From Candidatus Thorarchaeota archaeon (GTDB taxonomy: Archaea; Asgardarchaeota; Thorarchaeia; Thorarchaeales; Thorarchaeaceae), in NCBI GenBank assembly GCA_048884785.1, contig JBHLQM010000079.1, positions 1-12,127 of the forward strand: DNA of 12,127 nt. The letters are read 5' to 3'. Of the stretch, positions 1,245 through 10,510 are shown piece by piece; position 1 is the first letter of the stretch; every line of letters starts with the position of its first letter. The notes beneath the pieces are model-generated. The model saw only the letters and a list, made by a program, of their open reading frames with translations, ran no database searches and was not told the DNA's origin. The position numbers and the translations under genes are program-made.

Positions 1245-1412
1245 TCACTCAAATGAATCTGAGCTTGAAACTCAGATTCGGATAATATTTTGACACCTAG
1301 GGTATTTGCCCTAGGTGCCACCGGACATGGTACAACGTAGTTTCTATTCCTGCTCACACTTGAAGATGCCTTTCCGACCCATCTCGAAGGTCAGTTATTG
1401 GTTTGACAACCT
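1245..1412 (-). pseudogene. ligA: Decayed, internally deleted 3' fragment of an NAD-dependent DNA ligase (end of OB domain fused to end of BRCT domain)
   Basis: Minus strand 1411-1372 reads VVKPITDLRDGSE (LigA: [13 protein letters not shown]). A different frame from 1375 reads GKASSSVSRNRNYVVPCPVAP----RANTLGVKILSESEF (LigA: [40 protein letters not shown]). There is an exact 13-mer AACTCAGATTCGG at 1269-1281 and 8478-8490, and a relic GAG-TGA at 1250-1245 (LigA ends GAA-TGA), now out of frame. Confidence 0.9.
1379..1412 (+). repeat. 34-bp direct repeat, copy 1 (putative crossover/att-like core)
   Basis: CCATCTCGAAGGTCAGTTATTGGTTTGACAACCT; 33/34 identical to 9270-9303. Confidence 0.95.
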
Positions 1413-1660
1413 TGAAACTATTGTCAGCTGTTGTGGAATCCCCTTTTTTTCAGTGATTTTGGGGTTAGATAGATTACCTCTCTAACCCTCATGATATTGT
1501 GAATATGCTCCTAAACTACTAGGTTCAGCTAATTAAAAAGAGAGTTTTGCAATTCACAATGTTAACCTATTCATTTTTTGGGTAGGCAAATCGCGATGGT
1601 GAAATGGAGATGCATAGGCATACATTGTTGGCTGTGGCAATCTTAGATTTCGAGCTAACA

Positions 1661-1722
1661 CTCGGCATGAACGGCGAAATTTTGGCATTGAATTTGATTC
1701 AGCTGCCGAATCTCGGCATGAA
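1661..1722 (+). promoter_or_regulatory. Direct repeat CTCGGCATGAA x2 upstream of the giant gene; candidate regulator-binding sites
   Basis: Exact 11-mers at 1661-1671 and 1712-1722, a variant TGGCATTGAA at 1683-1692, and an inverted TGCCGA-atc-TCGGCA at 1704-1718. Function is inferred from position only. Confidence 0.35.
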
Positions 1723-1743
1723 ATTCCCATGGGACGTGGTTTC

Positions 1744-8418: not shown

Positions 8419-8423
8419 CGCAT

Positions 8424-8443
8424 GGGGGAGATGATTCTCCCCC
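8424..8443. terminator. GC-rich hairpin between convergent stops; probable bidirectional terminator or 3'-end structure
   Basis: GGGGGAGA-tgat-TCTCCCCC (8-bp perfect stem) in the 31-nt gap between TAG(8418) and the ligA TGA(8450). There is no long T tract. Confidence 0.65.
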
Positions 8444-8449
8444 GTTAAA

Positions 8450-10510
8450 TCATTCTTTTGATTTCAGGAGATTTTCGAACTCAGATTCGGTGAGAACTTT
8501 TATTCCAAGACTTATCGCCTTGTCGAGTTTCGAGCCTGCTCCTGGGCCTGCAACTACGTAATCTGTGTTCTTGCTAACAGTAGAAGACGTCTTTCCACCA
8601 AGAGAGTCCACTAGTTTTTCAGCCTGGTTTCGAGTCATACTCTGCAGAGTCCCAGTAAAAACAAAGACAGCCCCTTTGAGGAATCCTCTTTTGGGGGTTT
8701 CGGTTTCGCTAGCCATTGTCAAGCCGAGGTTTTTCAATTCTATAACCATTGTTCGAATCTCTGCAGATGTAAAGAAGTCCCTGATGCTGGCTGCAATCTC
8801 CGGTCCGATGGTTTCTATCTGCATCAGCTGGTCCTCTTTGGCATCCATCAGCTCCTCAATCGATTTGAAGCGTTTTGCAAGGAGTCTTGCAGTAGAAAGG
8901 CCTACAGTTGGTATTCCTAGTGCAAATATAACGCGTTCCAAGGATCTTGCTTTGCTGTTCTGAATCTGTTCTACAAGTGATTCAGCGGATGTCTCTCCAA
9001 ATCGCTCAATATCAACGAGATCGCTGACAGTAATCCGATAGAGCGATGGAATGCTGGTAAGTAGGCCGTAGTCTATGAGCATGTTAATCCTCTTTGGACC
9101 CAGACCCTCAATGTCCATTCCATCACGACTCGCAAAATGAACGAGGCCTCTACTGAGTTGAGCTGGACAATTGATATTCGTGCATGATGAGGATTTCAGA
9201 TCAACACTTGTCAGCACCTTTGACCCGCATTCGGGACAATTGCTGGGCATCTCGAATTTTGCTTCTGAGCCATCTCGAAGGTCAGCTATTGGTTTGACAA
9301 CCTGCGGGATAACATCTCCAGCCCGTTCAACGATGACGGTATCTCCAACTCTGATATCTTTTCTATCAATCTCACTTTGGTTATGGAGTGAAGCTCTTGA
9401 TACCGTAACACCCCCAATGTTAACCGGCTCTAGTTCTGCAACCGGAGTAAGTCTTCCGGTCCTGCCAACTTGTACCGTAATCGCATGGAGCTTAGTTGTC
9501 GCCTGTCTTGGCTTGAATTTGTATGCTACAGCCCAGCGGGGATCTCTAGTTCTCATACCCATCTTTTCTTGGTCTTCAAGATTATTTACTTTGAAGACAA
9601 CCCCATCTATCTCATAGGGTAATGTATCTCTCATGGATTCCAATTCAGAATGATACCTCAATGCATCTTTGATATCATCGCATATTCTCGAGAGTTTCAA
9701 GTTGACTCGGAGGCCCCATCTCTGCAAGGCATGCAAGGCATCCATTTGGGTGGAGAATATGTACCCCTCTGCTTCTGCAATACCATAGAGGTAGATTCTC
9801 AGAGGTCTCTGCGCAGTTATCTTTGGATCGAGCTGTCGCAATGAACCTGCTGCTGCATTACGTGGATTTGCGAATACTGATTCTCCATTCTTTGAACGGT
9901 CCATATTCAGGGAATTGAAGTCTTTCTTGTCCATATAGACTTCTCCTCTTACTACTACTCGTTTGGGGAGAATTTCAGTTTCGGGGTTAAGAAGAACAAG
10001 CGGAACATCCCTTATTGTTCGAATATTGGCTGTCACATCTTCTCCTGTTTCGCCATCTCCTCTTGTAGAAGCTAGAGCTAGTTGGCCATCATCATAGATC
10101 ATTTCAATTGCGAGACCGTCGTATTTTGGTTCAGCCACATACTCGATACTCTTCTTTCCGAGTTCCTGTTTGCAGGTTTCATCAAATGAAAGCACAGACT
10201 CTTCATCGTATACAGTCTTCAGAGACACCATAGGACTGGGATGTGTGACTTTCTGCAAGAGCGATTTGGGTTCACTTCCTACTCGTTGCGTTGGTGAGTC
10301 GGATAGAATGAGACTTGGATACTTGCTCTCTAACGATAGCAAATCCAAGAGCAGCTTGTCATACTCCGAGTCCGTTATTGCAGGATTGTCAAGAACATAG
10401 TATCGATAGTTATGGTATCTTATTGCTTCAACTAATTGGTTGATTGCATCTCTCGCTTTCTTCAGGTCCTTAATGCTGGAAACATCAATATCTGGTTTCA
10501 GGTCCTTCAT
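8450..10510 (-). CDS. ligA: NAD+-dependent DNA ligase (686 aa)
   Basis: Domain Ia [19 protein letters not shown]; adenylation motif EPKYDGLA; VRGEV; [15 protein letters not shown]; DGVVFK; OB domain QVGRTG/RAGDVIP; Zn finger CPECGS...CTNINC; HhH repeats; C-terminal BRCT. ATG at 10510 has a GGAGG Shine-Dalgarno-like motif shortly upstream and is preferred to the 10573 start. Confidence 0.98.
9270..9303 (+). repeat. 34-bp direct repeat, copy 2 (inside intact ligA, codons [11 protein letters not shown])
   Basis: CCATCTCGAAGGTCAGCTATTGGTTTGACAACCT; lies 7,891 bp from copy 1. Confidence 0.95.

Follow-up and report, generated by a model that had tools for sequence, protein, structure and literature searches.

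Genes for variable cell-surface structures, such as the O-antigen and capsule loci and the haloarchaeal surface-glycosylation islands, form flexible islands that are exchanged by homologous recombination in their conserved flanks. The E. coli prophage e14 encodes its own integrase. PMC13626634 (citing Hill et al.) describes this prophage at icd in E. coli K-12, with a C-terminal pseudogene, icdC, and with excision that is induced by the SOS response. In the effector-immunity arrays of Vibrio cholerae's type VI secretion system (T6SS), sequential displacement is the proposed model, and illegitimate recombination facilitated by homology has been put forward (PMC5361080). The locus described here comes from an Asgard archaeon, Candidatus Thorarchaeota archaeon, in which a decayed 3' end of ligA, the gene for NAD+-dependent DNA ligase, has a giant surface-protein gene on each side (gene 1 and gene 2), and the intact ligA lies beyond gene 2. 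The window, i.e., the whole stretch of DNA that was analysed, is a complete contig of 12,127 bp (JBHLQM010000079.1, here C79) from a metagenome-assembled genome (MAG) of 3.6 Mb in 158 contigs. On a modest balance of probability, the relic is a fossil of homologous and illegitimate recombination inside ligA, by which a variable surface-protein island was remodelled.

The ligA relic and its two ages

The relic occupies 1245-1412. Its pieces, the working counterpart of the repeat, the DNA that adjoins it and the hairpins within it are as follows.

1372-1412, minus strand: ligA pseudogene, core piece; codons 424-437, 38 of 41 positions identical to 9263-9303
9263-9303, minus strand: working copy of the 41-bp core; codons 424-437, directly after the invariant OB-fold block
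1245-1375, minus strand: ligA pseudogene, tail piece; last ~48 codons, the BRCT end, residues 660-707
1413-1461, no strand: 49 bp with a T7 run inside; ligA homology stops at its left edge
1255-1279, no strand: new perfect 9-bp hairpin in the relic tail; the former SESEF codons make up one arm; fold -12.1 kcal/mol, z -4.9
1294-1317, no strand: new perfect 9-bp hairpin in the relic tail; spans the place where GxGAGSK was lost; fold -18.7 kcal/mol, z -5.3

The 41-bp direct repeat contains a 34-mer (33 of 34 positions) that an earlier note, made from the letters of this DNA, had already picked out, and the core at 1372-1412 is the sole additional match in the genome to the 3' part of ligA (E 9e-10). 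For the tail, the minus-strand translation of 1250-1375 gives a 41-residue match to LigA residues 660-700 with 51% identity and one in-frame 4-codon gap (tblastn E 3e-10, and 3.6e-6 in another search); the tail is also matched by the LigA proteins of the relatives G005, G002 and G011 and, at the nucleotide level, by the ligA tail of L035. Core and tail are co-linear, on the ligA strand, and mutually out of frame; the deletion junction is the 4-nt GGAA (1372-1375) that they have in common. The relic is the 3' part of ligA from codon 424 to the end, minus codons 438-659, which were lost in a single 666-bp deletion. Within the tail, the invariant GxGAGSK motif has been destroyed by a 12-nt deletion together with substitutions. 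On the other side of the core, no similarity to ligA was found in 1413-1740, and 1413-1461 has no significant match to the regions upstream of gene 1 or of its paralogue gene 0, which lies on contig C52, or to the region downstream of gene 2. Thus, the earlier note had correctly recognized a repeat and a diverged ligA 3' end between giant genes and an abrupt end of ligA similarity at 1412. It had missed the 666-bp deletion, the promoter and gene remnant at 1462-1680, the two new hairpins of the tail, and the fact that the window is a whole contig.

Core and tail have diverged from the working gene to very different degrees. The core has 3 differences in 41 positions (93% identity), and orthologues match this 41-mer at just 19-32 of 41 positions. 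Between the relic tail and the working tail, 38 of 111 aligned positions differ (34%; Fisher p 0.0008 for 3/41 versus 38/111). At codon positions 1+2, 24% of the tail sites differ, compared with 54% at position 3, which resembles genuine orthologue pairs in the genus, and none of the substitutions peculiar to this genome recur in the relic tail. Its identity to the LigA tails of the clade that were compared is 43-62% in every case, and it is assigned to no one lineage. The two classes of codon position imply that the tails diverged mostly while both were still coding and that some decay came afterwards. One of the two copies must have undergone a crossover between core and tail, and the working ligA probably ends in a 3' half that came from another functional allele. 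The evidence supports a part in the event for the 41-bp core, which lies where the invariant OB-fold block ends. The claim of the earlier note that the 3' end of ligA had been replaced therefore survives in part: the old end has been displaced, and a near-identical core next to a diverged tail makes a different 3' half probable, but the trees of the two halves of ligA, described below, are congruent.

A second explanation, which is possible but rather doubtful, is an endogenous tandem duplication. The duplicated unit would have started upstream of the promoter, included a B-type giant gene (the type to which gene 0 and gene 1 belong) with its terminator, and reached as far as ligA codon 424. 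The ligA piece in the upstream copy would then have decayed, and gene 2 would later have replaced the second B-type gene. The layout of gene 1, relic, B-type promoter and, farther on, ligA, with its junction at 1412|1413, is exactly what such a duplication predicts, and gene 0 and gene 1 show that tandem duplication occurs at this locus; however, the 49 bp at 1413-1461 have no counterpart upstream of either gene. Furthermore, divergence between the unit copies is not uniform. The core is 93% identical, the tail differs at 34% of nucleotides, the promoters are 71-77% identical, and the proteins are 44% identical, and no single age fits a core that is 7% different, a tail that is 34% different and promoters that are 23-29% different. 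The core would have to owe its identity to short-patch conversion or a template switch against the working ligA in the course of the 666-bp deletion event. The high-identity block does stop exactly at the deletion junction, as this version would have it, but conversion between copies that are ~61% identical is mechanistically hard. Neutral decay of the relic was also simulated, with tails that start out identical and with differences at positions 1+2 matched to the data; at the best-fitting divergence, at least 20 of 37 third-position differences were obtained with p about 0.006-0.03. The observed excess at third positions is accordingly unlikely under neutral decay, and the frame of the relic tail is still open over 41 codons. 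The congruence of the 5' and 3' ligA trees is on the side of the duplication.

Both new hairpins are absent from the working ligA, and each uses old coding sequence as one arm. The hairpin at 1294-1317 is unique in the genome; for the one at 1255-1279 there is a single genome-wide match (at most 1 mismatch per arm), an imperfect one on contig C13. A family of repeat elements was considered for the hairpins of the locus and rejected, since all four are unique or have one other match. The hairpin at 1294-1317 coincides with a cluster of changes and with the 12-nt deletion. This clustering suggests either that the hairpin templated the mutations or that a terminator was selected for in the interval from gene 1 to gene 2. 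The frame of the relic tail has lost its stop codon, and 140 codons are open at 935-1357 on the minus strand, in antisense orientation to the 3' end of gene 1; the frame is probably open by chance and does not represent a gene.

The old ligA junction and the surface-protein island

The genes around the relic and their signals are listed here.

1-1212, plus strand: gene 1, C-terminal 403 aa; B-type giant surface protein with a C-terminal membrane anchor
1221-1239, no strand: gene 1 terminator-type hairpin; fold -11.1 kcal/mol; shared with gene 0
1462-1680, plus strand: B-type promoter (hairpin, TATA-like TTAAAAAG and CACAATGTTAAC block), then the opening ~23 codons (MHRHTLLAV...) that remain from a lost B-type gene, 'B3'
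1729-8418, plus strand: gene 2, A-type giant surface protein, 2229 aa, complete
8425-8446, no strand: gene 2 terminator hairpin; fold -18.6 kcal/mol; ends 3 bp before the ligA stop codon
8450-10573, minus strand: ligA, NAD+-dependent DNA ligase, intact (Pfam domains and orthologues)
10671-12125, minus strand: FtsX-like permease, C-terminal part (Pfam); upstream neighbour of ligA

In two of the nearest relatives found, a B-type gene, or what is left of its 3' end, stands tail to tail with ligA, with no more than one small gene between them. L035 has the closest LigA found (72% identical, among 5.8 billion proteins), and its gene order is FtsX, ligA, and then, convergent with ligA, a DUF1801 gene and a B-type giant gene whose product is 73% identical to that of gene 1. 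The DUF1801 gene, which in L035 lies between the giant gene and ligA, has left no trace in this genome. In L036 (LigA 71% identical), a B-type gene has left behind its last 53 codons together with a terminator hairpin, 9 nt from the ligA stop codon, with unrelated LVIVD and SBBP genes beyond them. This B-type remnant (L036:4311-4469, minus strand) consists of the membrane anchor and tail and lies between ligA and the LVIVD-repeat gene; it is the mirror image of the window's 5' B3 stub and shows that in L036 the giant gene has been replaced. In the window, the position equivalent to the stop codon of the relic comes 6 nt after the gene 1 hairpin, the same hairpin as in L036. The adjacency in both relatives implies that a B-type gene tail to tail with ligA is the older state. 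The relic tail thus lies in its original place and marks the old gene 1/ligA junction.

What lies downstream of ligA varies among the relatives that were compared, whereas the flanks are conserved. A C-type giant gene is found there in G005, a B-type gene in L035, SBBP genes in L037, L038 and L039, and LVIVD plus SBBP genes in L036; on the other side, the order FtsX-ligA is kept in G005, L035 and L037. In L038, ligA stands at one end, and ~9 kb away are orthologues of a gene for a 203-aa protein (58%) and of a peptidase M3 gene (77%), with unrelated genes between these flanks. In the present genome, their counterparts on C52 come before gene 0. Thus, ligA bounds a flexible surface-protein island whose other boundary is formed by the 203-aa gene and the peptidase M3 gene on C52.

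The end of C52 carries gene 0 (2186 codons) and then the first ~1300 codons of another giant gene. This partial gene and gene 1 share their best match, a single L035 protein, with a 472-codon gap between the two matches, and the missing middle of gene 1 is on no other contig of the genome. Probably, then, the end of C52 carries the N-terminal part of gene 1, and the giant-gene array probably continues from C79 onto C52. The gene 1 hairpin at 1221-1239 aligns with C52:22033-22051, the hairpin of gene 0. The six open reading frames (ORFs) that flank gene 0 encode a peptidase M3, two Ras-like GTPases, a methyltransferase, a peptidase C13 and one protein without a family. The two GTPase genes, of the Ras/Roc family, are adjacent (locus L042, C52:10616-11857) and lie a few kb from the left flank of the island; such small GTPases are typical eukaryote-like proteins of Asgard archaea.

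Recombination within ligA itself is seen among relatives. In 40-residue windows, the LigA proteins of P0003 and P0005 are 82-100% identical (mostly 85-95%) to about residue 420 and 48-82% identical beyond it. In P0003, the one of the two mosaic relatives whose breakpoint was mapped site by site, LigA follows P0005 to about residue 385 and P0002 from about residue 392/429, and the informative sites switch between 386 and 428. The P0003 breakpoint lies within the invariant OB-fold block, which ends at residue ~428, and the relic starts at residue 424. P0005 groups with P0002 in the tree of the 5' part and with P0004/P0007 in that of the 3' part. These mosaics imply that genomes nearly identical in the 5' part of ligA and in the block can differ strongly beyond it, and this is the type of donor that the structure of the locus needs. 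To judge from the sequences, this essential replication gene is undergoing recombination between lineages at the end of the OB-fold block. If recombination is anchored inside ligA, its 3' half behaves as part of the island haplotype; in the best explanation, that half, from about codon 429, travels with the island in this clade.

For the present genome, the 5' and 3' halves of LigA fall in the same six-member clade (Shimodaira-Hasegawa-like approximate likelihood ratio 96 each), and approximately unbiased (AU) tests reject no alternative placement (p-AU 0.10-0.40). The separate 5' and 3' trees that the earlier note had called for thus reveal no incongruence for this genome. In the OB block, the nucleotide identity of this ligA to its relatives, all of which are distant, is just 67-78%, and an island of nucleotide identity in the block is not supported. 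As for closer relatives, the 22-mer across the junction is absent from two public collections, one of metagenomes and one of genomes. The source name of the closest LigA proteins is Candidatus Thorarchaeota.

The working LigA has its Nlig-Ia, adenylation, OB, Zn-finger, HhH and BRCT domains all in order according to Pfam, with a Zn-finger score slightly below the cut-off (21.7 versus 25.8 bits). Its longest frame (707 codons) opens at a TTG. However, public gene calls and all orthologues start at an ATG 21 codons further in (window position 10510; 686 aa), which is probably the annotated start. LigA and FtsX domains were the only ones that a Pfam search of the window returned, with no match in the giant genes; giant proteins of relatives have faint matches to TSP3_bac. 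Gene 2 has a signal peptide, and gene 1 and gene 2 both encode DxDxDG calcium-type repeats and a C-terminal membrane anchor. The products of gene 0 and gene 1 (B-type) are 72% identical to each other and 43-44% identical to that of gene 2 (A-type); gene 1 and gene 2 are paralogues, with 44% identity over 399 aa of their C-terminal ends. The earlier note had spoken of giant surface/toxin-like genes; no toxin-like features were seen in the giant genes.

Gene 2 and a proposed order of events

The 7.9 kb between the relic and the working ligA end are composite. The segment 1462-1635 has 74-77% nucleotide identity to the region upstream of gene 0 (C52:15402-15562) and 71-74% to that upstream of gene 1 (C52:22069-22215). 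Farther on, 1610-1680 reads MHRHTLLAV..., a B-type start in another frame than gene 2 (tblastn to the N terminus of gene 1, E 3e-4). A third B-type gene, B3, formerly stood upstream of the present start of gene 2; with its promoter and 5' remnant just 71-77% identical to those of gene 0 and gene 1, it was not a fresh copy of gene 1. Orthologues of gene 2 (73%) are present in G005 (contig C12), a member of the same genus, and in L040. Both precede a gene for a 1490-residue NosD/beta-helix protein, with no ligA nearby, and both are followed by a terminator hairpin homologous to 8425-8446, past which no similarity of these loci was seen. Such loci, with their own terminator and without ligA, together with the B3 stub, imply that gene 2 replaced the body of B3 separately and brought no ligA end with it. 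The idea that gene 2 was the cargo of an incoming ligA end, as put forward in the earlier note, is therefore abandoned. Both hairpins on which that note had remarked (1221-1239 and 8425-8446) fold as it described.

An open frame of ~45 codons (1604-1747) runs from the B-type MHRH... signal-peptide start over the start codons of gene 2 (1729/1744) in another frame. Gene 2 may be transcribed from the inherited B-type promoter, with the stub as an upstream ORF. The region upstream of the B-type genes (1520-1620; C52:15440-15545; C52:22090-22190) shares a block made up of TTAAAAAG, GTTTGC..., CACAATGTTAAC, TTCGCG.TGGTG and the start ATGCATAGG, and a similar arrangement of TATA plus CACAATGT precedes an A-type gene of G005. 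The shared block is a candidate common regulatory site of the giant-gene family.

The composite nature of the unit also bears on a third explanation, in the manner of e14 at icd, in which the 41-bp core is an att site, the recombinase is encoded elsewhere, and ligA is a landing pad for a cassette that lacks an integrase. Direct repeats (38 of 41) do flank the unit, the target gene is restored with all its domains, and the icd/icdC layout (PMC13626634) is alike in outline. However, neither the window nor the six ORFs that flank gene 0 (C52) yielded a recombinase domain, which agrees with the earlier observation that the unit encodes no integrase. Furthermore, there is a single relic. Searches with four LigA proteins (tblastn) of C52, five G005 loci, the G042 tandem pair and G011 gave no others, so that none was found between gene 0 and gene 1 or beside eight paralogues in G005, G042 and G011, and no ligA relics were found at L035-L038. 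Gene 2 orthologues stand elsewhere with a different neighbour and no piece of ligA, the unit contains a B-type stub, and the junction 22-mer is missing from both public collections. The 41-bp core, compared with tRNA-Ala, showed no similarity to it. A site-specific cassette is improbable on these grounds. It is a still more distant prospect that codons 424-437 serve as an attachment site at which a recombinase encoded elsewhere swaps giant-adhesin cassettes with replacement ligA 3' halves among Thorarchaeota. The stacking of cassettes on ligA that the earlier note had envisaged finds no counterpart in a locus with one relic only; its analogy with e14 extends to the layout and no further.

Recombination inside ligA, followed by remodelling of the island, would account for the locus as follows. 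A second haplotype would have supplied DNA in which the 5' part and the core of ligA were near-identical and the 3' half had diverged, and which brought along a B-type giant gene (B3). This DNA would have undergone recombination with the resident ligA, either at the 41-bp core that the two shared or immediately past it, and its far end would have been joined illegitimately at 1412|1413. It might have taken the form of a circular intermediate that integrated Campbell-style, or the exchange might have been an unequal one between chromosome copies or a case of homology-facilitated illegitimate recombination; the enzymes would have been those of general recombination. The incoming 3' half would now complete the working ligA, and the old 3' end, having become redundant, would then have lost codons 438-659 (666 bp, at the GGAA microhomology) and evolved its two hairpins. 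In a separate, later event, the A-type gene 2 with its own terminator would have replaced the body of B3, of which the promoter and ~23 codons remain.

Several points weigh against this account. It needs at least three events plus a deletion. The test of the tail rests on 37 codons, and part of the tail has clearly decayed. The 666-bp deletion removed the very stretch in which the crossover would be visible. The LigA 5' and 3' trees are congruent for this genome, and the support for a foreign origin of the 3' half is therefore indirect. The second haplotype or donor is unsampled, the closest LigA among 5.8 billion proteins being 72% identical. In addition, the join between C52 and C79 is inferred, not assembled. 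As for an assembly artefact, a contig chimeric at the repeat would suit a fragmented MAG (158 contigs, contamination 5.4%) with gene 1 split across contigs, but it is very improbable. Exact identity within the repeat extends over 17 bp at most, and an assembler would not be misled by so short a run; the relic, with its internal deletion and its divergence, is no copy of the working gene; and the relic, the gene 1 terminator and the B-type promoter make up a coherent locus that is matched by relatives.

Comparison with known systems

The closest parallels to recombination inside ligA are the orphan 3' modules of Rhs and contact-dependent inhibition (CDI) systems and the T6SS arrays. In these, a conserved 5' part of a gene acts as a homologous anchor, the reading frame passes to an incoming variable 3' part that brings a downstream gene with it, the former 3' part is shifted downstream as a fragment that starts at the homology boundary and keeps its orientation, and no dedicated recombinase is needed. 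Here, too, a 5' anchor and an exchangeable 3' part of ligA are present among relatives (the P0003 and P0005 mosaics), and the relic, on the ligA strand, starts at codon 424, among the final residues of the invariant block. However, the gene that is split in Rhs and T6SS arrays encodes a polymorphic toxin, whereas at this locus it encodes an essential housekeeping ligase. There is a string of orphans there and one displaced end here, and the linked gene is an immunity gene there and a convergent giant adhesin gene here. In addition, there is no evident selective logic for varying the tail of a ligase, and the host is an Asgard archaeon.

In the case of e14 at icd, the likeness is that the working gene runs into the inserted DNA, at whose far end a displaced C-terminal pseudogene is found in direct orientation. 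The inserted DNA there is a prophage, whereas this locus has no recombinase and no phage genes; its inserted DNA is a composite of chromosomal paralogues, and its displaced end is heavily diverged and internally deleted. Thus, a 41-bp repeat that flanks a large gene is not necessarily an att site, which should serve as a warning in annotation.

The flexible surface-gene islands provide a third comparison. As in these, conserved flanks (ligA-FtsX on one side, the 203-aa gene and peptidase M3 gene on the other) surround variable surface-protein content, and a flanking gene, ligA, is mosaic in relatives. Clean allelic exchange, however, leaves no relic, and here a non-conservative event duplicated part of the flanking gene. 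No sign of a self-contained mobile cassette system was found, and the locus does not reveal a new class of mobile element; rather, the relic is a further example of an already known sort of recombinational scar. It would represent a molecular fossil of an Asgard archaeon remodelling its cell-surface gene island by recombination anchored inside an essential replication gene, and the locus comprising ligA, the island, the 203-aa gene and the peptidase M3 gene offers a concrete site at which to follow gene flow and the turnover of giant adhesins in Thorarchaeota populations.

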